DNA of 64,000 nucleotides from Candidatus Omnitrophota bacterium (GTDB taxonomy: Bacteria > Omnitrophota > Gorgyraeia > Gygaellales > JAQTUX01): assembly GCA_028707125.1 (NCBI GenBank), contig JAQTUX010000001.1:205639-269638 (forward strand), given 5' to 3'. The number at the start of each line of letters is the position of its first letter. Positions within the stretch are counted from its first letter, which is position 1. The position numbers and the translations under genes were made by a program. The notes beneath the pieces were generated by a model that had not been told where the DNA came from, did no database searches, and worked only from the letters and a program-made list of their open reading frames with translations. Shown here piece by piece: positions 30,574-58,707 of the stretch.

Positions 30574-30602
30574 TTGACAGAAGCCCATTTATAGGGTATA
30601 CT
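30574..30602 (+). promoter_or_regulatory. Sigma-70-like promoter preceding the riboswitch candidate
   Basis: TTGACA at 30574-30579, a 17-nt spacer, then TATACT at 30597-30602. Confidence 0.5.
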
Positions 30603-30635
30603 TATACTGACAATTAGGGTAGTGTAGGTTGAGGT

Positions 30636-30722
30636 TTTTCAGCCGATAAAGGCAAACCCGCAGGAATGCGGGGGCGCAAAGTTAGCGGCCCGGAACGGGC
30701 GGCGCGACTACCGAAGATGGAA
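30636..30722 (+). ncRNA. c-di-GMP-I (GEMM) riboswitch aptamer candidate
   Basis: The sequence aaaGGCAAACCcgcaGGAAtgcgGGGGCGCAAAGttagcggcccgGAAcgggcggcgcgacUACCGAAGAUGG matches the GEMM-I core segment by segment. The segments are GGCAAACC, a tetraloop hairpin, GGGRCGCAAAGC, a second tetraloop hairpin, and a closing ACCGAnGG. Confidence 0.6.
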
Positions 30723-30736
30723 AACTTTTTTATTTC

Positions 30737-30772
30737 CCGTATTCGGCATTATGGCTGGATACGGGATTTTTT
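30737..30772 (+). terminator. Intrinsic-terminator-like hairpin (putative riboswitch expression platform)
   Basis: CCCGTAT...ATACGGG 7-bp stem followed by ATTTTTTA. It lies 17 nt upstream of the ATG at 30789. Confidence 0.45.
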
Positions 30773-30788
30773 ATAGGAGGGCAAGAAA

Positions 30789-32471
30789 ATGAAGATCGGA
30801 TCTGATCGGAAAAAATATACCGCGTGTATTATTGCGTTTATTTTTGCATGCGAGGCAGTTTTTTCACCCAGTGTATCTGCCGCGGAAGACGAGGCGGACA
30901 ACATCTGGGAGCCGGCGTATGCCTATAATTGCCAGATCACCTGGCGCAGGGATAGCTGCACAGGCAAGGGATATATGCCTAACCGCGTTACTACCTATGC
31001 CCGGGACGAAGAAACAGGCAGCCGCTATCTTGATAGTTACCGCAGGGTTGATTACAGCTGCGACAGGGAACCGGGGCTGGGTTCAATACTGGTGATCAAC
31101 GGCTACAGCAGGTATTTCAGATTTCCCGACGGCTCGCGCCACACAGAATCATGGGACCAGTCCGGGTGGAGAGAGGCGCACCGTTATGCGGATGGCAGCA
31201 ACGACATCCGCAGCGGGGATGAGCCGCTGGACTGGATCGAGGTATATGCCGAGGATTACCGGGCGCAGACATTCAAAGACCACGTTTATTTCATGGCCAA
31301 AATAATTGCCGAGCAGAACCTGCTCGCCTGTTGTAACACTCCGGGATTCTCTGAACTCTGCCGTAAGGCGGAGGATGTGTTTGACAGGGCAGGGGCTGAT
31401 AGCGTAAAAAGGGCGCTGCACTTACGGGGCGACCTCTTTGAAACAAGGGCCGTATATCCCTGGCTCTGTTATAATTCTGATCCGGCCCGTCCCAATATCA
31501 ACTATACTAAACTCTTTGATTCTGAGGAGAGAATGTACAGGACGCTGGCTGCTCTGGAGTTGCTTTCGGCGGCCCCTGTTGTGGGCGGGGCAGCGGAAAC
31601 AATGGCAGGGCTTATTGAGGCAAGGCAGGGCAATTATAATCGGCTGTTCACGGCTCCGGCGGCATTCATATTCGGCGGCCTGGCTGTCAGGGGAGTATTC
31701 GGCGCCGCGGCGAGGATAGCGGCAATAGCAAGGAATCTGGGCATAATGAAGGCGATAGTCAACAATGTGTTCAGGCCCGTCAAACATTTTGCGGGGAGGT
31801 ATATCGTGTCCCCCATGATCAGAAATGCCGCGCATCTAAGATGGGGCGTTGAATCACTGCGGCAATATTGCTTCAGGATAGAAAACAGAGGGGTCGACGC
31901 GTTCGCGTTGGACAAGATCAATGAGATGAATGAGATCGTAAACGGCCTGGAGGAAGGCATAGCCCGTAAAGTTAACGATATGATGCTGCCTTTCTTTAAA
32001 TTCCTGGATAAGAACGGGCACGAGGTTGTGGATGAGGTCATAGGCGAAAATTCAAGCGCGTCAAGGATCTGGGAGCGGTTTGGAAGGGACGCGGATAATG
32101 TGTTTGATGAGGCAAGGGGCGCCTTTGAGAGGTTCACCGATCTCCTCGCGGCAAACAGCGACGATACGGCAACTGCCGCGCGGATGCTGAACTCCGCGGA
32201 GAGAAGCATCATAGATGAGATGGAAGAGCTGTTTGACGCCATAGACATTGATGATTACGAAAGATTCACGGAGCAGGTAGGCGAGTTAAAAGGGTTGCTT
32301 GACAGGCAGATGCCCATACTGCAGGCCTTAAACAGCGCGGCGACATGGAGCCAGGCGAACAGGTATTTAAGCGCGGGCCGGGCCGAAGCGGCAATGGCTG
32401 AATATATGAGGAATCTCAGGGGGTTCTATATACAACTGGACAACCTGTACAAGGACATTGCAAGCCATTAG
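30789..32471 (+). CDS. Secreted protein of unknown function (signal peptide, possible lipoprotein)
   Basis: The N-terminus MKIGSDRKKYTACIIAFIFACEAVFSPSVSAAED is signal-like. There are no recognisable catalytic motifs. The protein is Cys/Trp/Arg-rich at the N-terminus and a helical Ala-rich region follows. Confidence 0.45.
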   Translation: MKIGSDRKKYTACIIAFIFACEAVFSPSVSAAEDEADNIWEPAYAYNCQITWRRDSCTGKGYMPNRVTTYARDEETGSRYLDSYRRVDYSCDREPGLGSILVINGYSRYFRFPDGSRHTESWDQSGWREAHRYADGSNDIRSGDEPLDWIEVYAEDYRAQTFKDHVYFMAKIIAEQNLLACCNTPGFSELCRKAEDVFDRAGADSVKRALHLRGDLFETRAVYPWLCYNSDPARPNINYTKLFDSEERMYRTLAALELLSAAPVVGGAAETMAGLIEARQGNYNRLFTAPAAFIFGGLAVRGVFGAAARIAAIARNLGIMKAIVNNVFRPVKHFAGRYIVSPMIRNAAHLRWGVESLRQYCFRIENRGVDAFALDKINEMNEIVNGLEEGIARKVNDMMLPFFKFLDKNGHEVVDEVIGENSSASRIWERFGRDADNVFDEARGAFERFTDLLAANSDDTATAARMLNSAERSIIDEMEELFDAIDIDDYERFTEQVGELKGLLDRQMPILQALNSAATWSQANRYLSAGRAEAAMAEYMRNLRGFYIQLDNLYKDIASH

Positions 32472-32510
32472 TTTTTAAAGGCGTAGCCGTGTAATCTCAG
32501 GAGGTGCGTC

Positions 32511-32927
32511 ATGATACATAGTAAGATATTGGAAAGGCTGAAGTTCCTTTCATTCGTGCGCAAGGCGCTGGCGACAGTGGGCATGAGCTGTTTTGCCGAC
32601 GGCAGGTATATCAGGGGGCAGATGATAATCAAGATGAAGGACGGCTGCCTGCTTCGCAGGGAAGACGAGGTCAAATTCAGCTCAGAGCGGCTCAACAGCA
32701 TAAGCAAGAGGTACGCGCTGATAAGTTTAGACCGGCTTTTCGCGGAAGACGCGCAGGGGCTGCTAAGGGGTATCTACCGCCTTAACTTTCAGAGGAAAGA
32801 CCTGGATATGGTCAAGGCGGCGGCAGAGTATGAGAGGGACGAGACCTGTGTATTTGCCGCGCCGAATTTTGTGATCGCGCCGACAGCGCCGGTACCGGCC
32901 ACGGTAGAAAGAAGGAGGGGGCAATGA
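32511..32927 (+). CDS. Small protein of unknown function
   Basis: A GGAGGTG RBS lies 5 nt upstream. The C-terminal segment CVFAAPNFVIAP weakly resembles the end of subtilase propeptides. This is speculative. Confidence 0.35.
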   Translation: MIHSKILERLKFLSFVRKALATVGMSCFADGRYIRGQMIIKMKDGCLLRREDEVKFSSERLNSISKRYALISLDRLFAEDAQGLLRGIYRLNFQRKDLDMVKAAAEYERDETCVFAAPNFVIAPTAPVPATVERRRGQ

Positions 32928-33059
32928 GACGATTACTTAAACCGAAACTTATGTGCAGGTACGCCAGGATAAGCGCGCACAGGGCGAGGAGGAAGATGTC
33001 TGATTTTCTGGGGGATAATTTCCCGGCGATACCTCATATTGGAAAGGGAGAGGCGCGCC

Positions 33060-33383
33060 ATGGAGAAGCGTGAATTCGTACGGCTGAATGTGGAGCTGGA
33101 AGTGGCTTACCGCGTAATCGGGTCAATGAGGGACCTTGCCGGCACGCGTACCGAGGATGCCTCTGAAGGCGGCATACGCGTTATGTTCCCGGAGAAGGTC
33201 CAGCCGGATACGCGCGTGGAGATCAGCATAAAGATCCCCGGAGAAGAGAAGCCGGTTTTCGCGGTCGGCAAAGTGGTATGGGTCAGGCCCGATATATTTG
33301 GCGGCGTGTATATGACCGGCATCCAGTTCGTCCACATAAAGCAGGCCGACAGGCAGCGCCTGTATAAATACGTCGTATTATAA
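33060..33383 (+). CDS. PilZ-domain protein (c-di-GMP receptor-like)
   Basis: An RRxxxR-like N-terminal motif (RRAMEKREFVR) and a D/NxSxGG-like motif (EDASEGGIRV) are spaced as in PilZ domains. The start is taken at the ATG at 33060 behind a GGGAGAGG RBS, because the track start 33039 is TTG. Confidence 0.6.
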   Translation: MEKREFVRLNVELEVAYRVIGSMRDLAGTRTEDASEGGIRVMFPEKVQPDTRVEISIKIPGEEKPVFAVGKVVWVRPDIFGGVYMTGIQFVHIKQADRQRLYKYVVL

Positions 33384-33386
33384 ACT

Positions 33387-33412
33387 TTACATTTGCTTTG
33401 TTTGAGATTATA
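33387..33412 (+). promoter_or_regulatory. Sigma-70-like promoter for the gspE-led operon
   Basis: TTTACA, a 17-nt spacer, then a perfect TATAAT -10. It lies 10 nt upstream of the gspE ATG region. Confidence 0.4.
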
Positions 33413-33422
33413 ATTTATTGCG

Positions 33423-35141
33423 ATGGGAGATAAATCCGCGGTTTTGACGATAGGGCAGCTGTTATTAAAAGAAGGCGCGGTTACCCCTGAGCAGTTGGAC
33501 AGGGCATTGGCCCAGCAGAAAGAGGCAGGCGGGTATCTCTGCGCCAATCTTATAAAACTGGGCTTTGTCTCTGAAGAGCAGATCTTTCCCGTGTTGGCCA
33601 GACAGCTCAAGGTGCCTTACATCCGCCTCAAAGACGCCATTATCCCCCCGGAAGTGATCAAGACCGTGCCGGCGAAGTTTGCTACGCATTACCGGCTTAT
33701 ACCCGTTAAACTTGAGGGCGGCACGCTGTCGCTTGCCATGGCCGACCCTCTGGACGTGCATACCTTAGATGATATGCGGCTTTTTCTGGGCTATGATATT
33801 AAGCCCATGCTTGCCGGCGATACCGATATAGTGGAGGCGATAAGCAGGTATTACGGGGTTGGGGCGGACACACTTGAAGAGATAGTCGCCGGCAGCGAGA
33901 AGATATTCGGCAGGATAGAGAAAGAGGGAAGGGCTGCCGAGGATGTTGAGGTGCAGGCAGAGGACGCCTCAATAGTCAAGTTCGTAAACCAGATACTGGC
34001 TCAGGCCGTTTCCGACAGGGCCACCGATATCCACCTTGAGCCCTATGAGAACGAACTGAAGGTGCGCTTCAGGATAGACGGCATGCTCTATGACGTCAAT
34101 ATCCCCGAGACCATAAGATATTTTCACTCCGCGATCATTTCCCGCATAAAGATCATGGCGCATCTGAACATCGCCGAGCACCGGCTTCCGCAGGACGGCA
34201 GGATAAAGATAAGGGTCAAAGACATAGAGCTTGACCTGCGCGTCTCCATCGTGCCTTCATCCTTCGGGGAGGCGGTGGTCATAAGGATACTCAGCGGCAA
34301 AGAGGTCATGTTCCAGCTGGACAGCCTCGGCTTAAGCAAGGAAGAGTCGGAACTCTTAAGCGGCATAATCAAGAGGCCGCACGGCATAATACTTGTCACC
34401 GGCCCCACGGGAAGCGGAAAGACAACCACCCTTTATGCCTTCCTCTCCGAGCTGAATAAAAAAGAGACCAAGATCATTACGATCGAGGACCCCATAGAAT
34501 ATCAGATAAGCGGCATAATCCAAATGCAGGTCCATCCTAAGATCGGCTTTGATTTTGCCAACGGCTTGAGGTCCATACTGCGCCACGACCCGGATATAAT
34601 AATGGTGGGAGAGATACGCGACTATGAGACCGCCGAGATCGCCATACGTTCCTCCCTGACCGGCCACCTGGTTTTTTCCACGCTTCATACCAATGATGCC
34701 GCGGGCGCGGTAACGCGGCTTCTGGATATGGAGCTGGAGCCGTTCCTGGTCGCCTCTTCCATTGAATGCCTTATTGCCCAGCGCCTGGTCCGCCTTATCT
34801 GCCCGCATTGTAAAAAAGAAGCGCGCCTTTCCGAAGAGGCGGCGCAGATATTGAAGAAAGACATAGATGTTCCCAGGTCGGTATTTTATGCCGGTTCAGG
34901 ATGCGAGAAGTGCAAACACACCGGCTACCAGGGCAGGACCGCTATATATGAGATCCTGGTGATGGATAACGAGGTCAGGGACCTGATATTAAAGCGTTCA
35001 TCCAGCCAGCAGATAAAGCAGGCGGCGATCTCCAAAGGTATGACCACTCTTCGCCAGGCAGGCCTCAGAAAGGCGACGCAGGGGATCACCACCATAGAAG
35101 AGGTGCTGCGCGTAACGCAGAAAGAAGAGATGTTCATTTAG
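33423..35141 (+). CDS. gspE: Type II secretion / type IV pilus assembly ATPase (GspE/PilB family)
   Basis: N-terminal GSPII_E_N-like domain, Walker A GPTGSGKTTT, Asp and His boxes, and the tetra-Cys motif CPHC...CEKC. Confidence 0.9.
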   Translation: MGDKSAVLTIGQLLLKEGAVTPEQLDRALAQQKEAGGYLCANLIKLGFVSEEQIFPVLARQLKVPYIRLKDAIIPPEVIKTVPAKFATHYRLIPVKLEGGTLSLAMADPLDVHTLDDMRLFLGYDIKPMLAGDTDIVEAISRYYGVGADTLEEIVAGSEKIFGRIEKEGRAAEDVEVQAEDASIVKFVNQILAQAVSDRATDIHLEPYENELKVRFRIDGMLYDVNIPETIRYFHSAIISRIKIMAHLNIAEHRLPQDGRIKIRVKDIELDLRVSIVPSSFGEAVVIRILSGKEVMFQLDSLGLSKEESELLSGIIKRPHGIILVTGPTGSGKTTTLYAFLSELNKKETKIITIEDPIEYQISGIIQMQVHPKIGFDFANGLRSILRHDPDIIMVGEIRDYETAEIAIRSSLTGHLVFSTLHTNDAAGAVTRLLDMELEPFLVASSIECLIAQRLVRLICPHCKKEARLSEEAAQILKKDIDVPRSVFYAGSGCEKCKHTGYQGRTAIYEILVMDNEVRDLILKRSSSQQIKQAAISKGMTTLRQAGLRKATQGITTIEEVLRVTQKEEMFI

Positions 35142-35145
35142 CCAT

Positions 35146-36351
35146 ATGCCGTTATTCAATTATAAGGCAAAATCCGCCCCCAATGAATTAAAAACCGGGA
35201 CCATAGAGGCCGAAAGCCAATCCAACGCCGCGTCCAGGCTGCAGGAAATGGGGCTTTATCCCTTGAGCATAGAAGAGGCGGAGGGCCGGCCGCGGGGCAG
35301 GATTTTAAGAAGAAGGAAGATAAGCCGGAGAGATGTTACTGTTTTCACCCGCCAGCTTCACAATCTCCTTGCCTCAGGCCTGACCATACTTTCAGGGCTT
35401 AAGATCCTGCGCGACCAGTCGGAAAACAAGGATATGCAGCGGCTGATAGGCCGGTTGATCGACGACCTGAAAGAAGGGGAGCACTTCTCGCAGGCGCTTT
35501 CAAAACACCCGCAGGCATTTTCCACGTTGTACTGTTCTATCGTGGCGTCAGGCGAAGCAGGCGGATTCATAGACGAGGCGCTTGAGCGCGTAGCCGGATT
35601 TTTGGAGAAAGACCAGGCGGTAAGGTCAAAGATCATTTCCAGTTTGATCTATCCAGCATTGATCGCGATAGTAGGGAGCATCACCGTGTTTGTCCTGCTC
35701 ACCTTTGTCATACCGAAGTTTGTTTCCATGTTTGAAGAATTCGGCGAGACCCTGCCGCTTCCCACGGCAATACTCATAAGCATAAGCGCTTTCTTCAATA
35801 GTTATTACTGGCTTATCGCTTTGCTGGCTGCTATCGCCGTGTTTATTTTTAAGAGGATATACGGCTCTGATGAGGGGCGCCTGGCCATAGACAGTTTTAA
35901 GTTGAGGGCGCCCTTTTTCGGTAATTTCAACACCAAAGCGAGCATAGCGGATTTTACCCGGACGCTCTCAGCCCTGACAGGAGGCGGGGTATCTATACTT
36001 TCCGCCCTGGAAATAGCGCAGAACTCCGCGGGCAACGCGTTATTGAAACAGGAGATAGCGGCCTTCCGGGAAAAGATAAGGGAAGGCGGCAAGCTTTCTT
36101 CCTGTATCGCTGCCTCTGCCCATTTCCCCACCTATGTTTCAAATATCGTAGCTGTCGGGGAGGAGACCGGCACTATGGATAAGTCGCTGGAACGCATAGC
36201 GCGCACATACGAAGATGAGGTGGACCAGGTCACCAAGGCGATGCTTACCGGCCTTGAGCCGGCAATGATACTGATAATGGGCTCTGTCGTGGGGTTTATC
36301 GTGATCGCCATGCTTTTGCCGATATTTCAGATAAATTTTATGGCTCAGTGA
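35146..36351 (+). CDS. gspF: Type II secretion / type IV pilus inner-membrane platform protein (GspF/PilC family)
   Basis: Two tandem GspF domains of about 401 aa with three transmembrane segments. Confidence 0.85.
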   Translation: MPLFNYKAKSAPNELKTGTIEAESQSNAASRLQEMGLYPLSIEEAEGRPRGRILRRRKISRRDVTVFTRQLHNLLASGLTILSGLKILRDQSENKDMQRLIGRLIDDLKEGEHFSQALSKHPQAFSTLYCSIVASGEAGGFIDEALERVAGFLEKDQAVRSKIISSLIYPALIAIVGSITVFVLLTFVIPKFVSMFEEFGETLPLPTAILISISAFFNSYYWLIALLAAIAVFIFKRIYGSDEGRLAIDSFKLRAPFFGNFNTKASIADFTRTLSALTGGGVSILSALEIAQNSAGNALLKQEIAAFREKIREGGKLSSCIAASAHFPTYVSNIVAVGEETGTMDKSLERIARTYEDEVDQVTKAMLTGLEPAMILIMGSVVGFIVIAMLLPIFQINFMAQ

Positions 36352-36368
36352 CAAAAACGGAGGATAGG

Positions 36369-36725
36369 ATGGATCTAAGACGGAAAAACGGCTTTACGCT
36401 CATTGAAATAATGCTGGTTGTCATCATTATCGGCATACTCGCGTCCATAATCGTGCCCAGGTTTGCCGGCCGCTCTGAGCAGGCGCGCAAGGCAGCGGCA
36501 GCGGCCAATATAAAGTCGCTTGCCATCGCGCTGGATATGTACGAACTGGATACCGGAGCGTATCCTAAAACGCTGGCAGAGCTTTCCCCAAAATACCTGA
36601 AAAAACTGCAGAAAGACCCCTGGGACCAGGAATACCATTATGCGCAGAAGGGGACGAACGAATACGAACTGCGTTCCTGCGGCCCTGATAAAAATTGCGG
36701 CGGCCAGGATGACATTACAGAATAA
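36369..36725 (+). CDS. gspG: Type II secretion major pseudopilin GspG
   Basis: Prepilin leader and cleavage/methylation site RRKNGFTLIEIMLVVIIIGILA. The C-terminal motif DPWDQEYHY...CGPD is typical of GspG. The start is taken at the ATG at 36369, because 36348 is GTG. Confidence 0.8.
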   Translation: MDLRRKNGFTLIEIMLVVIIIGILASIIVPRFAGRSEQARKAAAAANIKSLAIALDMYELDTGAYPKTLAELSPKYLKKLQKDPWDQEYHYAQKGTNEYELRSCGPDKNCGGQDDITE

Positions 36726-37191
36726 GGCGTTCACCCTTCTTGAGCTTATTATCGTCATAGTCATCCTCGGGATCATCTTCTCCATTTCCACTCCCAGGTT
36801 CCGCGCCACGTATACAACCATACAACTCAGGAATACAGCTCAGGGAGTAATAAACTTAAGCCGCCTCATACGGCAGCAGGCCATACTTAAGCGGGCCGTC
36901 TATAAGATAGAGTTTAAGCAGATGCCCGCGGACAGCAACGATAAATCCTATTTCTCCGTTTTCCATAAGGACGGCTCAAGCGGTGAGTTTATAGCAGATA
37001 CGGATCGCCTGGCGAAGGTTGAAACGCCTAAGGGCATAAAAATCGAGATGAGCAAGCCCGCGCAGTTTTATAGCGACGGCACAATGGACATGGGTGGAAC
37101 AGAGATATATCTAAAGAGCGATGTTAAAAAGATCACGCTTAAACCTTCAAATACAAATGGTTTCTTTCTTCTTTCGGAAGATCCGCTATAG
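36709..37191 (+). CDS. Minor pseudopilin (GspH-like), prepilin-type N-terminal cleavage/methylation domain
   Basis: MTLQNKAFTLLELIIVIVILGIIFSIS. The start is the internal ATG at 36709, overlapping the gspG end. Confidence 0.55.
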   Translation: MTLQNKAFTLLELIIVIVILGIIFSISTPRFRATYTTIQLRNTAQGVINLSRLIRQQAILKRAVYKIEFKQMPADSNDKSYFSVFHKDGSSGEFIADTDRLAKVETPKGIKIEMSKPAQFYSDGTMDMGGTEIYLKSDVKKITLKPSNTNGFFLLSEDPL

Positions 37192-37555
37192 TTCCGGCTT
37201 TTTGCTTCTTGAAGTCGTCTTTGCCGTTGCCATTGTTTCTGTCAGCATAGTTATGGTCCTGAACACATTTTTCGGCGTAAGGCGCGCGATAAGGCAGACA
37301 GAAGATTATTTGCGCGCCGGCATATTATTAAAAGAGAAGATGAGCGAATTTGAGAAGCAGGCGTTAGCCGCGGGGAGCGCGGGCATAGATACCAGGAAAG
37401 AAGAAGGGGGTTTTCCCGAAGCAGAGGGGTTCAAGTGGGAGAGAAATTTTGTCAGAAAACTTCCTGGCCAGCCTGCCCTTGGAGAATTTAATCTCATCGT
37501 CTCCTGGGACGAGGACTCAAAAATAGATGCGCTTACCTGCCTTAAGGCAAAATAA
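37157..37555 (+). CDS. Minor pseudopilin (GspI-like)
   Basis: GFLLLEVVFAVAIVSV prepilin motif. The start is taken at the internal ATG. Confidence 0.45.
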   Translation: MVSFFFRKIRYSSGFLLLEVVFAVAIVSVSIVMVLNTFFGVRRAIRQTEDYLRAGILLKEKMSEFEKQALAAGSAGIDTRKEEGGFPEAEGFKWERNFVRKLPGQPALGEFNLIVSWDEDSKIDALTCLKAK

Positions 37556-38180
37556 GGGTTTTACATTAATCGAGCTGCTTATCGCCTCAAGTTTACTTGT
37601 GGTAATAATCCTCGCGCTCTATACGGGATTTCGCGTGGGCGCGCTTACTCATTCAACTTCGCAGCAGGTCTCCGATGACCTGCAGGGGTTGCGGCTGTTT
37701 TTTGACGGCCTTGAGCGGGATCTAAGGAACTGCGTTGATTACGATAAGGTAACTCCCGATTCAAAATTCAACGGAGGTGATACAAACTTAGGCCTGCTTA
37801 CCACCACGACCAGATTTACCACCGTTGCGGGAGACACCAAAGAGATCAAGACAATGGAAGCGGTTTCTTATGCGTACGGCAACAAAGAGATTTTCAGGGA
37901 GAGCTTACCGTTTTCCGAATTCCTGGCAAAGGGCCATTCAGCGCCCGCTTCAGGCAGTGCCAAAGCCGAAAGGATATGCGGCGGAATAGAGGAATTCAAG
38001 ATAACATACCTTGCCTCGCTTCCTTCCGCGTCTGATCCGGATCCCGCCGAGTTGGATGACTGGGACGCGAAATCAGGCGTACCTGCCGAGGTAAGGATCA
38101 CGCTCGTATTCTCCCGGGGTGTCAGGAAGATCAGGTTCACAAGAAGCATAATCTTGCCTTTAAATTTAAAACTTCTATGA
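37527..38180 (+). CDS. Minor pseudopilin (GspJ-like)
   Basis: KGFTLIELLIASSLLVVIIL prepilin motif and a size of about 217 aa. Confidence 0.5.
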   Translation: MRLPALRQNKGFTLIELLIASSLLVVIILALYTGFRVGALTHSTSQQVSDDLQGLRLFFDGLERDLRNCVDYDKVTPDSKFNGGDTNLGLLTTTTRFTTVAGDTKEIKTMEAVSYAYGNKEIFRESLPFSEFLAKGHSAPASGSAKAERICGGIEEFKITYLASLPSASDPDPAELDDWDAKSGVPAEVRITLVFSRGVRKIRFTRSIILPLNLKLL

Positions 38181-39250
38181 AGAAACGCTGCCGCCGGTCC
38201 GGCCAGGTTTTAATGATAAGTTTATGGGTTTTGGCTATCCTGGTCATTTATAGCATCAGCGTCAGTTACAGGATGCTGGTTGAAGTGCGGCTGAGCCGTT
38301 ACTACAGGGATAAAACAAAGGCATATTATCTGGCGCGGGGGTATCTGCTGAAATTGATTGAAGATAAAAAAGAGCAGAATGCATTACTTGGCGGCCTGTA
38401 TTTTCCCTACGACGATCCTGCGCCCAAGCCGCCGGAAGTGATCAATGACAGCGATGGGAAAATGGCGGGGCAAGTAACACATTTGATTATTGATGAGCAC
38501 AGCAAGATCAATGTGAATAAACTTATAAATACTTCAGGCACGGTTAATACGGATCTATGGAATACACTTAAGGCCTTACTTGAAGATCGGGCGCCCGGAA
38601 TAAATGATAATGATGCGGAAGATTTAGTTAAAAATCTTGTGGACTGGATAGACAAAGATGAGGACGCGCGCACAGGAGCCAGCTCACTGGAGAAGGATCT
38701 TTATAAGGATTACACTCCGGAAAATAAAGAACTTTCAGATCCCTCTACGATACTGCTGGTTAACCGCTGGAATGAGGAAATATTTAATAGTATCATTGAT
38801 TTTATAACTATTTATTCTTCCAGCGAAAAGATAAATATTAATTCTTGTTCCAAGGAGGCGCTTGCCGCCGTACTTAAAGCGCATCAACCGCAAAATGTTA
38901 CAATTGATACTGATGGTATGGCTCATAAATTAATAGATTTCAGAGCCGGAGGTGACGGAAAAGTTGGAGAAGGCAATGATGATCAGTATTTTGGAAGCGA
39001 TCCATCGCCTCCATCAATACCAGAAGGCGCAATTTATTATATAAATAATATTCCGAATACATTGAATCTTTCTACGGATGCAAGTACGTTATTGTCTGGT
39101 TCGTCCGGTTTGTTTAGTAAGAATATTCTCGCTACCGGTTCCGATATCCTGCGTTTTGAGGTTGAGGCGGATGTGCGCGGGATAAAACAGAGGATAACCG
39201 CGATCGTTAATTTTTCAACCGGAAAAATTATTTATTGGCAGGAAGAATAG
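38177..39250 (+). CDS. Minor pseudopilin GspK-like
   Basis: An N-terminal hydrophobic segment followed by a large periplasmic domain of about 357 aa, positioned after the H/I/J-like genes. Confidence 0.45.
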   Translation: MKKRCRRSGQVLMISLWVLAILVIYSISVSYRMLVEVRLSRYYRDKTKAYYLARGYLLKLIEDKKEQNALLGGLYFPYDDPAPKPPEVINDSDGKMAGQVTHLIIDEHSKINVNKLINTSGTVNTDLWNTLKALLEDRAPGINDNDAEDLVKNLVDWIDKDEDARTGASSLEKDLYKDYTPENKELSDPSTILLVNRWNEEIFNSIIDFITIYSSSEKININSCSKEALAAVLKAHQPQNVTIDTDGMAHKLIDFRAGGDGKVGEGNDDQYFGSDPSPPSIPEGAIYYINNIPNTLNLSTDASTLLSGSSGLFSKNILATGSDILRFEVEADVRGIKQRITAIVNFSTGKIIYWQEE

Positions 39251-39268
39251 AGTGGTATAATCAGGACT

Positions 39269-40648
39269 ATGTTACCTTGCATTGAATTTTTCAATAATGG
39301 GCTTAAGTTCTGCGCGGCCGGCCAGGGCAAGGGCAAGCCGTCCATAGAGCATCTGGCTGTGTTTGATACCCCTGTTCAATTAAAGCCCTATCTGGAAAAG
39401 CACAATATTCCATTAAAGGAATACACCGTTCTTATCCCCACGCATCTTGCTTCAGTAAGGTTCTTGAAACTCCCTTCTCACAACCGCGCGGAGATCGCCG
39501 ATATGGTCAGGTGGCAGGCGGCAAAACAACTGCCTTATTCTCCCGAGGAGATCATTTATAGTTATCATGCCATAGGTACGCGGGAGGGAGGCTTTTCCGA
39601 TATCGTTCTTTTTCTCGCGCGCAGGGACACCGTGGCTAAATACCTTGAGGCGCTTGAGCCCATAGGCAGCCACCCGAGCGCGGTTTCCCTGTCCTGCGAG
39701 GGATTAAAATTACTTTATGATCTTCAGGCGGCAGGCGATGCCGCCGGCCGCCAGGACAACGTCGCCTTAATAGAGATCGCGCCTGATTTTACCTCCGTAT
39801 CTCTAACGCATAAGGGCTCCCTTGTGTTTGTGAGGGGCGTGCCAATGCCGGGGGCGGCGCATTCGGCGGATAAGGCGGTTTCGGAGATCACGCTTTCGCT
39901 TGACGCCTACCGCAGGCAGGCATTCGCGCGGCAGATCAACCGCCTGCTGATAAGCGGGCCGCGGAAATTGGCCGCCGCGGTTATAGACGCGCTTAAGCCG
40001 AATGTCTCGCTGCCGATAGCCAGGATCGACCATCAGGCGGGCCTGGATCTTTCTTCGGAGGCAGGCGCGCTTTTAGCAAAAGAGGAATATTCATTCGCGC
40101 CTTGTTTGGGCGCGGCATTGAAGGCGGAAGGCGTAGAGATCAATCTTCTGCCGCGGGAGATCATAGGAAAACTCTCGCATCATCGTTCCCGCAGACAGCT
40201 TATGAAGAGCGCTGCCCTGGCAGCGGTGGTGTTCGCTCTGGCCGGCTTGATATTCGCCAGGAAATTCTACGATAAAAATAATTTTCTCGCCTACCTTGAC
40301 AGGGAGCTGGGCACGCTCGGCGAAGATACCGTAAAGCTGGATGAAAAGGCCAGGCGCCTGGAATTGATAAATAAGCAGCTCAGCAAGGGCTCTTCAGCGC
40401 TGGACGCCATAAGCGCGCTTTATAAGGCAGTGCCTTCCGGCATTACCTTCAGCGGCGTGCTTTATGAGGCGGATAAGGCCGTAAACATCAAGGGCAACTG
40501 CCAGGATATGTCCCTGGCGCTTAAGTTAGTCAGCGCGCTTGAGGCGACCGAATATTTCGCGGGCGTGCAGGTCGGCTACGTTACCAAGAAAAAATCGTCT
40601 TCCGGGGAAGAGATCGATTTTGAGATAAACGCCCCGCTGGAGAAGTGA
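39269..40648 (+). CDS. GspL-like / fused PilM-PilN-like assembly protein
   Basis: Cytoplasmic actin-like domain, a single transmembrane helix (AALAAVVFALAGLIFA) and a periplasmic coiled-coil domain. Confidence 0.5.
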   Translation: MLPCIEFFNNGLKFCAAGQGKGKPSIEHLAVFDTPVQLKPYLEKHNIPLKEYTVLIPTHLASVRFLKLPSHNRAEIADMVRWQAAKQLPYSPEEIIYSYHAIGTREGGFSDIVLFLARRDTVAKYLEALEPIGSHPSAVSLSCEGLKLLYDLQAAGDAAGRQDNVALIEIAPDFTSVSLTHKGSLVFVRGVPMPGAAHSADKAVSEITLSLDAYRRQAFARQINRLLISGPRKLAAAVIDALKPNVSLPIARIDHQAGLDLSSEAGALLAKEEYSFAPCLGAALKAEGVEINLLPREIIGKLSHHRSRRQLMKSAALAAVVFALAGLIFARKFYDKNNFLAYLDRELGTLGEDTVKLDEKARRLELINKQLSKGSSALDAISALYKAVPSGITFSGVLYEADKAVNIKGNCQDMSLALKLVSALEATEYFAGVQVGYVTKKKSSSGEEIDFEINAPLEK

Positions 40649-41190
40649 TGAAAGCCGTATTCTTAAGTAATCTCTCAAAACGTGAAAGGCTGATACTGTT
40701 TTTGACTGTGTCGGTGTCCGCCCTGGCAGTTGTTTATGTGTCGGCGGTTGAGCCGCTATCGGCAAGGTTCAATAAGCTCAACAGCGAAATAACCCTTAAG
40801 AAGAGGAAGCTGGAAAAGATCTACCAGCTGCTTGGGCACAGGGAAAAGATCGAAGCGGAATATGAGAAACTTGTCAGGGCGGCCATAAAGGAGAACTCTG
40901 ATGAGGAGATAATCGCCTCCATATTAAACCAGATGGAAGCCATTGCCAGGGGCTCCGGAGTGCAGATAAACAATGTCAGGCCGGACAGGGTCAAAGAGGA
41001 AGCGGGGTATAAACGCCTGAGCATAGAAGTAAGCACGGAATCCAATACAGACGCGCTTTTTAAATTCATATATAACCTGGAGACATCCCCTGCCTTGCTT
41101 AAAATAGAACGCCTGCAGATATCTCCCTCCCGAAAACAGGACGGCCTGGTAGAGGCCACATTCAGCATCGTCAGGATCTCCTTCATCTAA
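40648..41190 (+). CDS. GspM / PilO-like assembly protein
   Basis: N-terminal transmembrane helix, a coiled coil and a C-terminal ferredoxin-like region. Positional inference. Confidence 0.4.
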   Translation: MKAVFLSNLSKRERLILFLTVSVSALAVVYVSAVEPLSARFNKLNSEITLKKRKLEKIYQLLGHREKIEAEYEKLVRAAIKENSDEEIIASILNQMEAIARGSGVQINNVRPDRVKEEAGYKRLSIEVSTESNTDALFKFIYNLETSPALLKIERLQISPSRKQDGLVEATFSIVRISFI

Positions 41191-41245
41191 CGAAACCCAC
41201 AAATAAGGCATATTCTTACTTATATTGATATCGCTGTCTAAGTAG

Positions 41246-41302
41246 AGAGTAGATAGTGCTTGACAAATATGTAAAGAAGCGCTATCACTATCTACATGGA
41301 GA
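41246..41302. promoter_or_regulatory. Candidate MerR-type operator/promoter: 10-bp inverted repeat bracketing a TTGACA box
   Basis: GTAGATAGTG-cTTGACAaatatgtaaagaagcgctat-CACTATCTAC. It lies immediately upstream of the MerR-like small gene. Confidence 0.3.
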
Positions 41303-41313
41303 GTTGAGCAAAA

Positions 41314-41535
41314 ATGAGCGATAATATCTTTCTTATCAAGGACTTAAGCCAGCTGAGCGGACATTCTGTCTATACGCTCAAGTATTATCTTCGTTTAGGG
41401 CTGATAAAGGAATCCGGCAGGAGCCCTGAGACGGGTTTCAGGTATTTTAATCAGGATAACCTGGAGGCGTTAAAGAGGATCAGGGAACTGCAGGTCCAGG
41501 GCAGGACGCTGAAAGAAATAAAGGCGTTATTATGA
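41314..41535 (+). CDS. MerR-family HTH DNA-binding protein (73 aa, no effector domain)
   Basis: IKDLSQLSGHSVYTLKYYLRLGLI matches the MerR HTH. Confidence 0.5.
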   Translation: MSDNIFLIKDLSQLSGHSVYTLKYYLRLGLIKESGRSPETGFRYFNQDNLEALKRIRELQVQGRTLKEIKALL

Positions 41536-42347
41536 GCTACTACACGATATTCGGTTTGGAAAAAGAGCCGTTCTCTACCAGCCCCGATCCTCACTTTTTT
41601 TATTTATCCCAGGCGCACAATACGGCATTGAAAAGGGCGGAGATCAATATACGCCTGCGGCGCGGTTTAAGTTTGATACTCGGCGACGTGGGCACAGGCA
41701 AGACCACGCTTTCCCGGATGCTGCTGCAGACATTTGAGGGGGATGAAGATTTTGAATTCTATATGATACTGGACCCCGATTATAAATCAGAGTATCAATT
41801 CCTTGTCAACCTCGCCAAGATGTTCAAGCTCGACCCCCTGTTAAAATCAACCCTTGATTATAAAGAGGCGATAGAAAAATACCTTTTCCACAAAGGCGTG
41901 GACGAAAATAAGGTGATCGTGCTTTTGATCGACGAGGGCCAGAAGCTTAATCCCAATCAGTTAGAGACGCTGCGCACGCTGCTCAATTATGAGACCAACG
42001 AATATAAGCTGCTGCAGCTGGTGATACTGGCGCAGGTGGAGCTGCTGCCGCGCGTGAGAAAGATACGCAACTTTATGGACAGGGTGTCGTTAAAATATAT
42101 TATAAACCCCCTGGATATGCAGGAGACAAAGCAGATGATAAATTTCCGCCTGAGCCAGGCAGGCAGGAACGGAAGAGGGGGGCTTTTTGACGAAGGCGCC
42201 TGCGGGCTCATCTATCAATATACTCAAGGATACCCCCGTAAGATCGCCCTGCTCTGCCACAACGCGATGGAGCTGGCGGTAATGCGCGATAAGGACAGCG
42301 TTGATAAAGAGATCGTGGAAGAGGTGATAAGGAACGACGTTAGATGA
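41532..42347 (+). CDS. ExeA/GspA-like AAA ATPase
   Basis: The N-terminus FGLEKEPFSTSPDPHFFYLSQAHNTAL followed by the Walker A GDVGTGKTTL is the ExeA-family pattern. Confidence 0.6.
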   Translation: MSYYTIFGLEKEPFSTSPDPHFFYLSQAHNTALKRAEINIRLRRGLSLILGDVGTGKTTLSRMLLQTFEGDEDFEFYMILDPDYKSEYQFLVNLAKMFKLDPLLKSTLDYKEAIEKYLFHKGVDENKVIVLLIDEGQKLNPNQLETLRTLLNYETNEYKLLQLVILAQVELLPRVRKIRNFMDRVSLKYIINPLDMQETKQMINFRLSQAGRNGRGGLFDEGACGLIYQYTQGYPRKIALLCHNAMELAVMRDKDSVDKEIVEEVIRNDVR

Positions 42348-42964
42348 ACAATCCGGGAGACGTTTCGCCCGAGGAGAAACTCCTTCGGCTTATAAAGAAC
42401 AAACCGGGGAAGAGAAAGGATGAGGCAGCGCCCGCGGCGGTTGATTTGAGCGCCCCTGCCGCGGCGGGAAAGATAAATTTTCAGGCGCTGGCAGGGTTTG
42501 ACCCGAAAATTATAAACAATGTCCTGACGGCGCTGGCGCTGATTTTTCTGGCGTACCTGCTGGCGGACTTCCTGTTTTTGTCGCCTTCTTTTCGCAATGA
42601 GCTGCAGCGTATCAAGAATGCGGCCCCCGGGGAAGAGCCGGATATAATTGAGGCGATCAGCCCCATGCCTTATTCATATTATTCCGAGCAGGTCAAAGGC
42701 AAAAACCTGTTCAGGTCAACGGCGAGAAGGGAGAGCCAGGCGGGCGGCGCCCCCAAAAAGGAATTAAGGGAGTTGATAAAAGACCTGGCGTTGATAGGCA
42801 TAATCGCCGATGAAGAGCCGCAGGCGATAATAGAAGACAGGGCGACCAGGCAGAGTTATTTCCTCAAAAAGGGAGAGGGCGTCAACGGATTGGAAGTGGC
42901 GGAAATAAAAGAAAATAAAGTCGTATTTGAATATCAGGGAGAGAGAGTTGACCTTTACTTATAG
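42344..42964 (+). CDS. GspC/PilP-like (or ExeB-like) secretin-interacting protein
   Basis: A single transmembrane helix and a C-terminal beta-rich segment (GIIADEEPQAIIEDRATRQSYFLKKGEGVNGLEVAEIKENKVVFEYQGERVDL) like HR/PilP domains. Confidence 0.35.
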   Translation: MNNPGDVSPEEKLLRLIKNKPGKRKDEAAPAAVDLSAPAAAGKINFQALAGFDPKIINNVLTALALIFLAYLLADFLFLSPSFRNELQRIKNAAPGEEPDIIEAISPMPYSYYSEQVKGKNLFRSTARRESQAGGAPKKELRELIKDLALIGIIADEEPQAIIEDRATRQSYFLKKGEGVNGLEVAEIKENKVVFEYQGERVDLYL

Positions 42965-42975
42965 GGGGGGCAGAG

Positions 42976-44970
42976 ATGTTTAAGTTAAAGACCGCCTTTT
43001 TTCTTATGGGATTGTTGAGTTGCCTGTTTTCTCCGGCGATCGCGCGGGAAGAAGGGCTTCCTCCGGAAGAACAACCGGTTATTGACGAGCGTTTCCTGGA
43101 GGAGATGCCTCCTGAGGAATGGATGAAACAGCCGGAACCGGAAGAGGGGATGTTACCTGAGACAGAGCCGCTGTTCTCTCCGCCCTCCGCCTCGCCTCAA
43201 GTTCCTGAGGACGGCCGGCAGGAGGGCAAGATATCCCTTGATATAAAGGGCATGAATATCCTTGATGTGCTTAAATTGATCTCCCAGCGTTCAGGGATGA
43301 ATATCGTGGCAGGCCGCAATGTGTCGGGCCGCGTTACGATGTTCATCAGGGATGTTGAGCCGATAGACGCGCTGGAGGTGATCCTGGCGGCAAACGGGCT
43401 TGCCTACGAGAAGAAGGGCGGCATCATCAATATCATGTCAGCGCGGGATTACGAGCTTGCCCACGGAGACAAGTTTGATGATAAAAAGGAGTTTACCACG
43501 ATCAAATTACAATATGCCCAGGCAGCCACCCTGAGCAAGGCCTTGACCACGGTAAAAAGCGCCCTGGGCAAGGTGGTTGTGGATGAAAGCAGCAATACCC
43601 TGATAATCCTGGATATGCCGGAAAAGATAAAGCAGATGAAACAGATAATAAAAGACGCGGACAAGCCGATAGTCACAAAGGTATTTAACCTGCAGTACGG
43701 AACAGCTGAAGACATGAAGGCCGCATTACAGGAAAAGGTGACAAAGAATATCGGCACGCTGACCATTGACGCGCGCACGAACAAGCTGGCGATCAGGGAT
43801 TATCCGGAGAAGATAAATGAACTGACGGAAGTCATCCAGCAGTTTGACGAGAAGCCAAAACAGGTTCTCATCGAGGCAAGAATCATAAAGATTGACTTAG
43901 ACGATGAATTCAAGTTCGGTATTGATTGGGACTACTGGTTGGAAAAGTATTTCAGGGTTACTCAGTCATTTAAGCCAACCGCTAGCAAGGGTACCGCCAC
44001 GGTATTTACTTTCGGGCCAAGTACAATCAATGCAAAAGAAGAATATCGGGGAATAATGAATATGATAAGTTATTTTGGTAAGACAGAGACCCTATCCACT
44101 CCCCGCATAATAGTGCTGAATAATCAAGAGGCAAAAGTTTTACTCGGTAATAAAGAATCATATATTGAGAGCACCACGTCGCAGTCAGGCACTGGTACGC
44201 AGGTAACGGCACAGGAAATTAAATTTATAGAAGGCGGAGTTAAATTGTCTGTAACTCCAACCATAAATGACGAGGGTTATATTACGATGAAGATAAAACC
44301 CGAAGTAAGCACAGCAGGACTTACGCCCATTACTGTCAGCGGTCAAACTACGCAGGTGCCCACGTTTAATACCTCAGAAGCGGAGAGTACGGTAATGGTG
44401 AAAGACGGCGCTACCATACTTATCGCGGGTTTGATTAAAAACGTAGATACGAAGAGCCGTAATAAAATTCCTCTTATGGGAGATGTCCCGCTTATTGGAA
44501 ACTTGTTCAGGCAGAACAACAATCTGGTGCAGAAGAATGAACTGGTTATTTTCCTCACGCCGACAATTGTAAGCGGTAGTAAGGTTGTTGAGTATAAAGG
44601 GGAAGCTGAAACACCGAGATTAGAAGATATGCAGAGAGACGCGGCTGATGATCCGATGATCAAAAAGGCGGCGCTGCCCTCGGAGGGCTTCAGGAATTTC
44701 CTGGAATATTCCGATTTTGTCTCAAGAAAGATAAGCCAGACAGCGAAGGAGAACGCGGGCCAGACCTCGGAGTCGGGCAGGGTCACGGTTTCTTTTATAT
44801 TGCTGTCCACCGGAGAGATCCAGGATAAGCCGCGGGTCGTATCGTCTACGAATGAGCTGTTGAACAACCTTGCTCTTAAGAACGTAATGGAGTCGGCGCC
44901 TTTTCCGCCGTTTTACAGGCTTTCTGAGAAAAATATGGAGCGGTTCAGGATAGCGATATCGTATAATTAA
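42976..44970 (+). CDS. gspD: Secretin (GspD/PilQ family)
   Basis: Signal peptide, secretin N domains (RDVEPIDALEVILAANGLAYEKKGGIINI) and the C-terminal secretin domain (LSTPRIIVLNNQEAKV...IPLMGDVPLIGNLFRQNNNLVQKNELVIFLTPTIV). Confidence 0.85.
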   Translation: MFKLKTAFFLMGLLSCLFSPAIAREEGLPPEEQPVIDERFLEEMPPEEWMKQPEPEEGMLPETEPLFSPPSASPQVPEDGRQEGKISLDIKGMNILDVLKLISQRSGMNIVAGRNVSGRVTMFIRDVEPIDALEVILAANGLAYEKKGGIINIMSARDYELAHGDKFDDKKEFTTIKLQYAQAATLSKALTTVKSALGKVVVDESSNTLIILDMPEKIKQMKQIIKDADKPIVTKVFNLQYGTAEDMKAALQEKVTKNIGTLTIDARTNKLAIRDYPEKINELTEVIQQFDEKPKQVLIEARIIKIDLDDEFKFGIDWDYWLEKYFRVTQSFKPTASKGTATVFTFGPSTINAKEEYRGIMNMISYFGKTETLSTPRIIVLNNQEAKVLLGNKESYIESTTSQSGTGTQVTAQEIKFIEGGVKLSVTPTINDEGYITMKIKPEVSTAGLTPITVSGQTTQVPTFNTSEAESTVMVKDGATILIAGLIKNVDTKSRNKIPLMGDVPLIGNLFRQNNNLVQKNELVIFLTPTIVSGSKVVEYKGEAETPRLEDMQRDAADDPMIKKAALPSEGFRNFLEYSDFVSRKISQTAKENAGQTSESGRVTVSFILLSTGEIQDKPRVVSSTNELLNNLALKNVMESAPFPPFYRLSEKNMERFRIAISYN

Positions 44971-57027: not shown

Positions 57028-58707
57028 ATGCCTCAGGAAAGACAGTCAGAGCGTTCAAGGCAGGCAACGCCGATAGAAGAGGCGCTGATAAAAGAGGGCA
57101 TAATCACGCCCGAGCAGCTTGAGACGCTGAAGGTGGAGCAGGAAAGGAGCAGCGTCTCCATAGTTGAGGCGGTGCGCCGGCTCAAGGTCATAGATGAAGA
57201 CGTCCTGCTTGATTTCCTGAGCAGAAAACTCAATATAAAAAGGCACAGTTTAAAAGGCTTCATCCCCTCTCCCGATATCCTCAATAAGGTCCCGCCGCAT
57301 TTTGCCAGAGGCAAAAAGATCATCCCCCTTTTTCAGGAAGGTAAAGAATTGGCCGTAGGCATGGCAGACCCGCTGGATTTCGCCAGCGTGGAGGAATTGC
57401 GGTTCGGTTCCGGGCTGTTTGTCAAGCCGTACCTGGTCAAAGAAGACGAGGTGCTGGAATTTTTATCTTCTTATTACCCTGAGTCGGAAGAAGACATTAA
57501 GGCGGCGCCGCGGCAGAAAGAAAAAGAAAGGGAAGACGTGGAAAAGCCGTCAATAGTCAGGAGCGTCAACCTCCTCATTTTGCAGGCGGTAAAGGCGGGC
57601 GCCTCGGATATACATATAGAGCCGCTGGAGGATTCTTTGAGGGTGCGTTTCAGGGTGGACGGCGTCCTGCATGAGGTCACGCCGCCGGAAAAATATTTAT
57701 ACAGCGCCATCGTCTCGCGCATCAAGATCATGTCCAACCTTGATATCGCCGAGAAAAGGATACCGCAGGACGGCAGGTTCCAGACGCAGGTGGGGGAGAG
57801 GTCTATTGACGTGCGCGTCTCAACCATCCCCATGATCTACGGCGAAAGCATAGTGCTGCGCCTGCTTGAGCAGACAAAGAAGGTGCTGACGCTGGAAGAG
57901 ATCGGCTTTTTAAAAGACGACTTAAGCGTATACAGGCGCCTGATACAGCAGACAGCGGGCGTAGTCCTGGTTACCGGCCCCACGGGGAGCGGAAAGACCA
58001 CGACCCTTTATGCCTCGCTTATGGAAATAAAGAGCGTGGAGAAGAATATTATCACAATAGAAGACCCTGTGGAGTATCATCTTGACTTTGCCCGCCAGAT
58101 ACAGATCAATTCCAAGGTAAACCTCACCTTTGCCTCGGGCCTGCGTTCAATATTGCGCCATGACCCGGATATAGTCATGGTGGGAGAGATCAGGGACCTG
58201 GAGACCGCGGAGATCGCCACGCAAGCGGCCCTCACCGGCCACCTCGTATTCTCAACCCTTCACACAAACGACGCGCCCTCCGCCATAACGCGGCTGGTGA
58301 ATATGGGGGTTGAGCCGTTTCTGGTCGCCTCCTGCGTTAAAGGCGTGGTCGCCCAGCGGCTTGTGAGGGTGTTGTGTACCTGCAAAAAGCAGAGAAAGAT
58401 AAAACTTTCCCTGCTTCACGGGCTGCTGCGGCTGGAGCAGCCGAAAGAGGACAAGGAGGTACCGGTCTTTGAGGCGGGCGGCTGCCAGAATTGCATGCAT
58501 ACCGGCTACAGGGGCAGGGTGGCGATATTTGAGATAATGGAGATGAACGACGATATAGGCGCCCTCACCGTTGAGAAGAAAAGTTCGGAGGATATAAAGC
58601 GGCTGGCTGTTTCGGGAGGGATGCACAGCTTACAGCATAACGGCCTGGACAGGATACTCGCGGGCGTGACCTCGCCCGAGGAAGCGGTGAGGGTTTTGGG
58701 AGCATAA
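57028..58707 (+). CDS. Type IV pilus / T2SS assembly ATPase, second copy (PilB/GspE family)
   Basis: GSPII_E_N-like N-terminus and Walker A GPTGSGKTTT. It shares the conserved nucleotide-binding-core motifs with 33423..35141. Confidence 0.9.
   Translation: MPQERQSERSRQATPIEEALIKEGIITPEQLETLKVEQERSSVSIVEAVRRLKVIDEDVLLDFLSRKLNIKRHSLKGFIPSPDILNKVPPHFARGKKIIPLFQEGKELAVGMADPLDFASVEELRFGSGLFVKPYLVKEDEVLEFLSSYYPESEEDIKAAPRQKEKEREDVEKPSIVRSVNLLILQAVKAGASDIHIEPLEDSLRVRFRVDGVLHEVTPPEKYLYSAIVSRIKIMSNLDIAEKRIPQDGRFQTQVGERSIDVRVSTIPMIYGESIVLRLLEQTKKVLTLEEIGFLKDDLSVYRRLIQQTAGVVLVTGPTGSGKTTTLYASLMEIKSVEKNIITIEDPVEYHLDFARQIQINSKVNLTFASGLRSILRHDPDIVMVGEIRDLETAEIATQAALTGHLVFSTLHTNDAPSAITRLVNMGVEPFLVASCVKGVVAQRLVRVLCTCKKQRKIKLSLLHGLLRLEQPKEDKEVPVFEAGGCQNCMHTGYRGRVAIFEIMEMNDDIGALTVEKKSSEDIKRLAVSGGMHSLQHNGLDRILAGVTSPEEAVRVLGA

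Follow-up and report, generated by a model that had tools for sequence, protein, structure and literature searches.

The stretch of Candidatus Omnitrophota DNA analysed here, 64,000 nucleotides in all and called the window below, carries a regulatory leader in which promoter, aptamer, terminator, ribosome-binding site and ATG follow one another on the + strand, a layout shared with an orthologous leader (L243) whose host is a distant relative. Beyond the leader lie open reading frames for a 560-aa protein, a 138-aa protein, a 49-aa product and a PilZ protein (Table 1), and these are followed at 33423-44970 by a complete type II secretion set: GspE with an MshEN domain, GspF, GspG, minor pseudopilins, GspK, PilM/N-like L, M, an AAA ATPase, a C-like protein and the secretin.

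Table 1. Features of the leader and of the genes behind it, in window positions
Feature	Position	Strand	Details
Sigma-70-type promoter	30574..30602	+	TTGACA 30574-79, 17-nt spacer, TATACT 30597-30602
Putative transcript 5' end, GACAAUUAGG	30609..30618	+	7 nt past the -10 element; identical 10 nt in L243
P1 extension, 5' strand, GAGGUUUUUCA	30631..30641	+	pairs with 30718-30728, 11 bp
AT2 5' partner, UUCAGCC	30638..30644	+	pairs with GGCUGGA 30753-59 (terminator 3' arm)
c-di-GMP-I aptamer	30642..30716	+	RF03167, covariation, pocket residues
Aptamer P1 core	30644-45 with 30712-13	+	
Pocket equivalents	G20 = G30651; A47 = A30678; C92 = C30711	+	from covariance-model alignment
Aptamer P1a	30652-53 with 30676-77	+	
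Aptamer segment GGCAAACC	30652-59	+	
Aptamer P1b	30657-62 with 30667-72	+	6 bp, CCCGCA/UGCGGG, GGAA loop 30663-66
Aptamer segment GGGGCGCAAAG	30671-81	+	
Interhelical pair C44/G83 equivalents	C30675/G30702	+	
Aptamer P2	30680-92 with 30696-30709	+	
Aptamer hairpin GCCCG-GAA-CGGGC	30688-30700	+	
Aptamer segment UACCGAAGAUGG	30709-20	+	
Candidate anti-terminator AT1	30711..30746	+	30711-24 (P1 3' strand and linker) with 30733-46 (terminator 5' arm)
Intrinsic terminator	30735..30772	+	13-bp stem 30735-47 with 30754-66, 6-nt loop, U6 30767-72
RBS AGGAGGG and start codon	30776..30791	+	RBS 30776-82, ATG 30789-91; sequence, ORF list
First regulated gene (predicted), 560 aa	30789..32471	+	signal-peptide-like N-terminus
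138-aa protein	32511-32927	+	probably co-transcribed
49-aa ORF	32924-33073	+	probably co-transcribed
PilZ protein	33060-33383	+	RxxxR (REFVR) and DxSxxG (DASEGG) motifs intact; probably co-transcribed
Promoter-like site before gspE	33386-33414		11/12 match

The promoter matches the consensus at 11 of 12 positions and is the only promoter-like site between 30300 and 31000. Its counterpart in L243, TTGAAA-17-TATACT, has a different spacer sequence and stands at an equal distance from the conserved GACAATTAGG, with which the L243 leader is taken to start. Transcription in the window would begin at 30609, the ten nucleotides from there on recurring without a change at 5299-5308 of L243. Folding the leader as a whole gives a structure that beats all 200 of its shuffles (z = -4.7). 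Each sequence element listed in the original prediction was found in its place by direct reading of the sequence. The promoter was recovered by the promoter scan, the segments read there as a GEMM-I core coincide with an Rfam match with E = 1e-11, and the terminator-like hairpin with its T tract before the ATG proved to be a 13-bp stem followed by T6; for the hairpin with the GGAA loop, the loop stands and the stem has six base pairs (30657-72) rather than the four described. The overall arrangement that had been proposed, in which the gene for a secreted protein is preceded by an aptamer with its own promoter and an expression platform based on a terminator, is thus borne out by the Rfam match, the scans and the orthologous leaders.

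The 560-aa protein belongs to an orphan family. At NCBI it carries the name hypothetical protein and comes from a Candidatus Omnitrophica MAG, and word-indexed and exhaustive HMMER searches of 1.84 billion representative proteins returned just two relatives, one with 78% identity from a near-identical strain (P0002) and one with 32% identity (P0003); a protein-based contig scan with the same query gave no match. Neither this protein nor the 138-aa protein has a Pfam match, and their AlphaFold models reach a pLDDT of only 43 and 40, respectively, and are therefore unusable. Homologues of the 138-aa protein are found directly 3' of the riboswitch in L243 and in a further leader, L244. The terminator scan gave no convincing + strand terminator between 32471 and 33423, its sole + strand site there being a weak 5-bp stem (33279-33291) inside the PilZ coding sequence, and the transcription unit probably consists of the 560-aa, 138-aa, 49-aa and PilZ genes. 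Since gspE has a promoter-like site of its own, the riboswitch would reach into it by read-through only; of the control once proposed to run onward into a PilZ-gspE operon, the part concerning PilZ is thus probable and the part concerning gspE is narrowed to such read-through. The MshEN motifs of the GspE ATPase are degenerate, with TIG and YLC in place of the published RLG (PMC5013675), so that binding of c-di-GMP by this enzyme is not assured. A motif scan of the window found no GGDEF protein.

At gathering thresholds, the 64-kb window has exactly one Rfam match, which lies at 30642-30716 on the + strand (60.2 bits, E = 1e-11) and covers the RF03167 model over its full length. All pairs of the model form in the window with the exception of the outermost P1 pair. 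The ligand contacts of the Vc2 aptamer are G20, A47 and C92, and its C44-G83 pair has been described as universal (PMC4744006, PMC5888326); the window carries all five nucleotides. A custom covariance model, built from 14 of the sequences that are described below, recovered 110 related aptamers and gives the window aptamer 82.9 bits, a score for a sequence that belonged to its own seed. Among these relatives, G20, A47 and C44 are present in 110/110, C92 in 107/108 and G83 in 106/106; 93.5% of the cells in the alignment are paired, 19 of the 23 pairs show compensatory changes, and the covariation exceeds that of every shuffle and every slid control.

The likeness to the RF01051 type and to Vc2 extends to the three-helix architecture, to the motifs GGCAAACC, CGCAAAG and CCGAAG, to the GNRA loop on P1b, to the location in a 5' leader and to a gene context connected with c-di-GMP (PilZ and a secretion/pilus locus). 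On the other side, P1 of the window is 11-12 bp longer, and P2 is short, with a bulged A30684 and without the 11-nt tetraloop receptor. The sole unusual residue is the G at position 43 (G30674), where Vc2 and both of the Rfam consensus sequences shown have A; this variant is natural and widespread. Searching the literature for GGGGCGCAAAG produced nothing useful. Judged from these features of its sequence, the element is a class-I (GEMM-I) c-di-GMP riboswitch of the canonical kind, and it occupies the 5' leader of an operon of this Omnitrophota MAG.

The name of the best-scoring model requires some comment. A match to RF01051 had been anticipated, and the c-di-GMP-I clan was indeed the right one; the top model is RF03167 (c-di-GMP-I-GGC) instead, which scores higher than RF01051 on the window and is barely over its own gathering score of 59. 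A second member of clan CL00126 also reached its own gathering score at the site, and as the gathering score of RF01051 is 35 bits, this second match is in all likelihood RF01051. The GGC variant, which we take to be defined by a G at position 47, in agreement with the model consensus ACGC-G-AAG and with true G47 sequences, was reportedly described by Weinberg et al. in PNAS in 2017, and we know of no ligand for it. The window shares with RF03167 a compact overall architecture and has GCGC-A-AAG at the decisive place, the G of the model corresponding to A30678; the equivalent nucleotide is A in L243 and L244 as well.

How far the label bears on the pocket was seen from related loci. Species genomes of GTDB were scanned for GGCAAACC-N-GGGGCGCRAAG, and the G43 motif was found together with a canonical pocket in at least 120 species representatives from many phyla, six among the motif loci listed being Omnitrophota; A47 occurs in 126 of 128 among the motif matches listed. 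When 18 of the motif loci were put through Rfam, RF03167 was the best model in 16 (17 matches, 60.8-74.5 bits) and RF01051 in 2. True G47 aptamers, which came from metagenomes, all have A43, score 59-76 bits with RF03167 and in some cases are best matched by RF01051. The model thus scores A47 (60-74 bits) as high as G47, so that the label is silent on the pocket, and its appearance here is a model cross-hit. Membership of the GGC variant was rejected on A30678 in spite of the passing score, and with G47 absent the canonical c-di-GMP reading holds. The c-GAMP subclass was likewise excluded: in c-AMP-GMP riboswitches (GEMM-Ib) an A replaces the G at position 20 (PMC7266159), which is G30651 in the window and G in all of the 110 relatives.

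A true variant riboswitch, of the RF03167 class or of a G43 subclass, with a ligand other than c-di-GMP would account for the top Rfam model and for the departure at position 43, and it could draw on the pattern that, among the sequences collected, G43 occurs only with A47, as it does throughout the 110 related aptamers, while G47 occurs only with A43. This is nevertheless very improbable here, given that the defining G47 is missing, that G20 and C92 are intact, that the model does not separate A47 from G47, and that G43 with a canonical pocket is so widely distributed. We give a similarly slight chance to the idea that the G43/A47 form, which Rfam places under the orphan GGC-variant model, could be a subclass with a function of its own, differing in how tightly or how selectively it binds a dinucleotide, be it cyclic or linear; if it were, positions 43 and 47 would be coupled. 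For annotation, the lesson is that an RF03167 label near the gathering score does not amount to a variant pocket, and that position 47 should be read directly.

The L243 locus, which encodes P0003, is syntenic (bioDA, mnmA, nadA, riboswitch, then PilZ/GspE genes), and its intergenic region holds the promoter, the conserved start, an aptamer scoring 59.4 bits and a hairpin with a U6 tract; after it come genes for proteins of 134, 551 and 99 aa, a VWA protein, PilZ, MshEN-GspE, GspF and GspG. L244, the third orthologous leader, was reached through the 138-aa protein. When the aptamers and P1 extensions of the window, L243 and L244 are aligned, 99% of the cells are paired and ten pairs show compensatory changes, among them an exchange in P1a of the rare type C-G to U-A. 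The leader of a near-identical strain (L001) keeps the terminator within an otherwise diverged stretch and is uninformative on the aptamer, because its contig begins just past it. The linker, sought in metagenomes by its exact sequence, gave no match.

The P1 extension, a helix chosen by the aptamer-constrained minimum free energy (MFE) fold, measures 11-12 bp across the orthologues; in the three of them 97% of it is paired, changes being compensatory in one case and one-sided in four, and in L243 it forms without the ligand constraint too. The terminator, which the terminator scan detects, has 7 G-C pairs among its 13, and its stem has an energy of -22 kcal/mol. It is kept in L243 with compensatory changes and replaced in L244 by one of different sequence. 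As it starts 6 nt 3' of the P1 extension and overlaps neither that helix nor the aptamer, an ON design by direct overlap is excluded.

Two alternative pairings connect the P1 strands with the arms of the terminator. AT1, with the core pairing CCGAA:UUCGG, is the local MFE structure, at -9.5 kcal/mol, and when the transcript ends at 30747 the fold that contains it has the same energy as the global MFE; the L244 terminator, whose sequence is entirely different, keeps the complementarity to CCGAAG.AUGGA. AT2 uses UUCAGCC, a stretch that runs from the end of the P1-extension 5' strand through the internal loop into the P1 core and is identical in the three orthologues, and GGCUGRA opens the 3' arm of all three otherwise different terminators. 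Where AT1 and AT2 are Watson-Crick, the terminator has G·U wobbles. Shuffling gave, for the window, L243 and L244 respectively, p = 0.017, 0.0045 and 0.0007 for the P1 extension, p = 0.003, 0.07 and 0.0007 for AT1, and p = 0.07 (0.04 with the other side shuffled), 0.0075 and 0.015 for AT2, values to be read with five pairings tested per leader and several of the individual p-values marginal; AT1 is weak in L243. An upstream helix, GGUAGU:ACUACC, was at chance level (p = 0.25 in the window, 0.41 in L243) and was dropped, as was a pairing of the leader with the 5' arm of the terminator (p = 0.67 and 0.95). A helix GG[U/C]AG:CU[A/G]CC covaries between the window and L243, fits neither state and does no better than shuffles.

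At the decision length, the unconstrained MFE of L243 contains AT2 (end 5497) and that of L244 contains AT1 (length 216) and AT2 (ends 231-233); at full length, both flip to the P1 extension together with the terminator. For the window, the fold with AT1 and AT2 is 3.4 kcal/mol less favourable than the MFE once the transcript has reached 30760. In the full-length leader the terminator fold has an advantage of 16-19 kcal/mol over the fold with AT1 and AT2, so that anti-termination, if it takes place, must be kinetic.

AT1 and AT2 both require free P1 strands, as expected of the ligand-free state, so OFF logic is the best supported: the alternative pairings conserved in three orthologues most likely point to a switch whose termination is favoured by the ligand. 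Provided that the riboswitch is functional, we hold this direction of control to be quite probable, and a canonical GEMM-I riboswitch acting as a transcriptional OFF switch is the best explanation overall, one that we regard as reasonably likely. In the absence of ligand, the CCGAA of the unlocked P1 core would act as a toehold for the nascent 5' arm of the terminator, AT1 would displace the P1 extension, and the UUCAGCC thereby freed would capture the 3' arm (AT2), letting RNA polymerase read through; the order given here, from toehold to strand displacement, is what we infer from the positions of the pairings. With c-di-GMP bound, C92 and the P1 core would be locked and the toehold removed, neither AT1 nor AT2 would form, and the terminator would fold, ending transcription near 30770.

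The same aptamer could instead belong to an ON switch in which c-di-GMP favours read-through. The ligand-stabilised P1 stack might, for example, extend into GGG(30617-19):CCC(30736-38) and so keep the terminator from closing at its base, and the aptamer-constrained fold at end 30747 does carry the P1 stack into the terminator 5' arm. Such an extension, however, contributes no more than about -5.8 kcal/mol, where the terminator has -22, and the complementarity between leader and terminator arm is the one found above to be at chance. Co-expression of a PilZ receptor at high c-di-GMP would be biologically intuitive, and the closest aptamer sequences, those of Brocadia and Planctomycetia (L018, L004, L029 and L114; form ccgauaaaGGC...cugccgaagau), which share G43 and also precede genes for signal-peptide proteins, are ON designs. 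In those riboswitches, though, the P2 3' strand of the aptamer itself doubles as the 5' arm of the terminator, whereas the terminator of the window is separate from aptamer and P1 extension alike, and AT1 and AT2, kept in the three orthologues, need the P1 strands free. We therefore consider ON control unlikely.

Somewhat less likely still is that the aptamer is real but uncoupled, the terminator being a constitutive attenuator, or translation being controlled by CUUUUUUAU (30725-33), which would pair with the region of the RBS. The terminator is present in every full-length MFE fold, whether the aptamer is constrained or not, 30725-33 is paired with 30774-82 in the MFE of the full leader, and there is a precedent in Bc1, a c-di-GMP-I riboswitch that showed no measurable response (PMC11218506). 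Against this, the complementarity of AT1 and AT2 has been kept although the terminator sequence of L244 was replaced, which would be unexpected without coupling; the RBS pairing is rich in G·U, and the RBS sits elsewhere relative to the terminator in L001 and L243.

Transcriptional OFF control, the reading that we prefer, has a counterpart among known riboswitches. Cd1 of C. difficile, upstream of flgB, is said to be an OFF-type transcriptional c-di-GMP-I riboswitch (reportedly from Sudarsan et al., 2008), and an aptamer is followed there too by a separate intrinsic terminator, the anti-terminator is drawn from the P1 3' strand, and the ligand promotes termination, as predicted for the window. 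The window differs in its phylum, Omnitrophota, and in the genes that would be regulated, and it has in addition a second conserved anti-terminator contact, between the P1 5' strand and the terminator 3' arm, and the long P1 extension.

Since an Rfam scan of the standard type picks up the element, its kind is already known, and it is an ordinary c-di-GMP-I riboswitch; what has been added here is that the GGC-variant label is corrected, that OFF logic is argued from comparison, and that the likely regulon is defined. The practical value is modest. Under OFF control, high c-di-GMP would mean less of the 560-aa, 138-aa, 49-aa and PilZ products and less read-through toward the type II secretion genes. 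For an operon that contains a PilZ gene, this is a counterintuitive direction of control.

For the Omnitrophota, a phylum known nearly only through metagenomes, the analysis adds a predicted c-di-GMP-controlled unit, comprising a secreted orphan protein, the 138-aa protein and a PilZ protein, beside a complete type II secretion locus, together with the testable prediction that this unit would be switched off by high c-di-GMP.

Comparison of two near-identical strains shows the first gene regulated by the riboswitch to be a mosaic. Between the window and L001, the same locus in the second strain, there is full identity in the linker, the 5' arm of the terminator and the C-terminal ~310 codons of the gene, while from the terminator loop to about codon 250 the two diverge strongly and carry indels. 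This pattern suggests that recombination or diversifying selection has acted on the secreted protein's beta-rich N-terminal half. The orthologous riboswitch loci L243 and L244 differ from the window, and from each other, in downstream gene order; the constant riboswitch partner across all three is a 138-aa family, which has no Pfam match.

Farther downstream lies a second sigma-70-like promoter, so transcription of the type II secretion genes may not depend on the riboswitch. In the MshEN domain of GspE, TIG and YLC replace both RLG c-di-GMP-binding triplets, with the hydrophobic and Gln positions retained; the RxxxR and DxSxxG motifs of the small PilZ protein are canonical. The window also holds a second gspE/pilB-like ATPase paralogue, with ~70% nucleotide identity to part of the first gene.

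Coordinates of the features discussed
Feature	Locus	Coordinates	Remarks
Transcript 5' end with G[U/C]AG	window	30609-30622
	L243	5299-5311
CU[A/G]CC	window	30708-30712
	L243	5433-5437
Mosaic region	window	30748-31540
	L001	31-850
Genes behind riboswitch	window	30789-33383	560-138-49-PilZ
	L243	5561-10320	134-551-99-VWA-PilZ
	L244	277-3826	141-58-942
Small PilZ protein	window	33060-33383
Second sigma-70-like promoter	window	33386-33414	TTTACA-17-TATAAT; 11/12 match, directly upstream of gspE
GspE MshEN domain	window	33423-33620
First gspE/pilB-like gene	window	33423-35141
ATPase paralogue	window	57638-58271
Aptamer with insertion	L244	13-129
Aptamer cluster	L169	2523-9021
c-di-GMP-I-type aptamer	L065	665-739

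After the conserved transcript 5' end, GACAAUUAGG, comes G[U/C]AG, a segment able to pair with a CU[A/G]CC that covers the C92 equivalent of the aptamer. The helix shows one compensatory change between the window and L243; it scores no better than shuffles and is compatible with neither proposed state, ligand-bound or ligand-free.

Positions 43 and 47 of the pocket region look mutually exclusive. Among the matches listed (positions 30674 and 30678 of the window, together with loci L003-L122 and L123-L242), A47 accompanies G43 in 126 of 128 pattern matches, and the two that combine G43 with G47 both lack the remainder of the aptamer. A43 is present in all the convincing G47 aptamers that were retrieved, but the G47 search pattern itself demanded A43 by design. 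Neither position predicts assignment to RF03167 or RF01051.

The L244 aptamer carries, between C44 and G45, a 44-nt insertion made up of two similar hairpins (CCCGCCA...UGGCGGG twice), which lowers its Rfam score to 29.5 bits. Such an aptamer could be decorated, disabled, or the product of a small repeat element inserting.

On one metagenome contig (Ga0209515_10000418, L169), seven predicted aptamers of clan CL00126 lie within ~6.5 kb, an unusually dense c-di-GMP riboswitch cluster. A c-di-GMP-I-type aptamer scoring 69 bits (L065) lies on a contig whose bin is assigned to a Nitrososphaerota archaeon. That contig is probably mis-binned; if the binning is correct, this would be a riboswitch of the c-di-GMP-I class in an archaeon.
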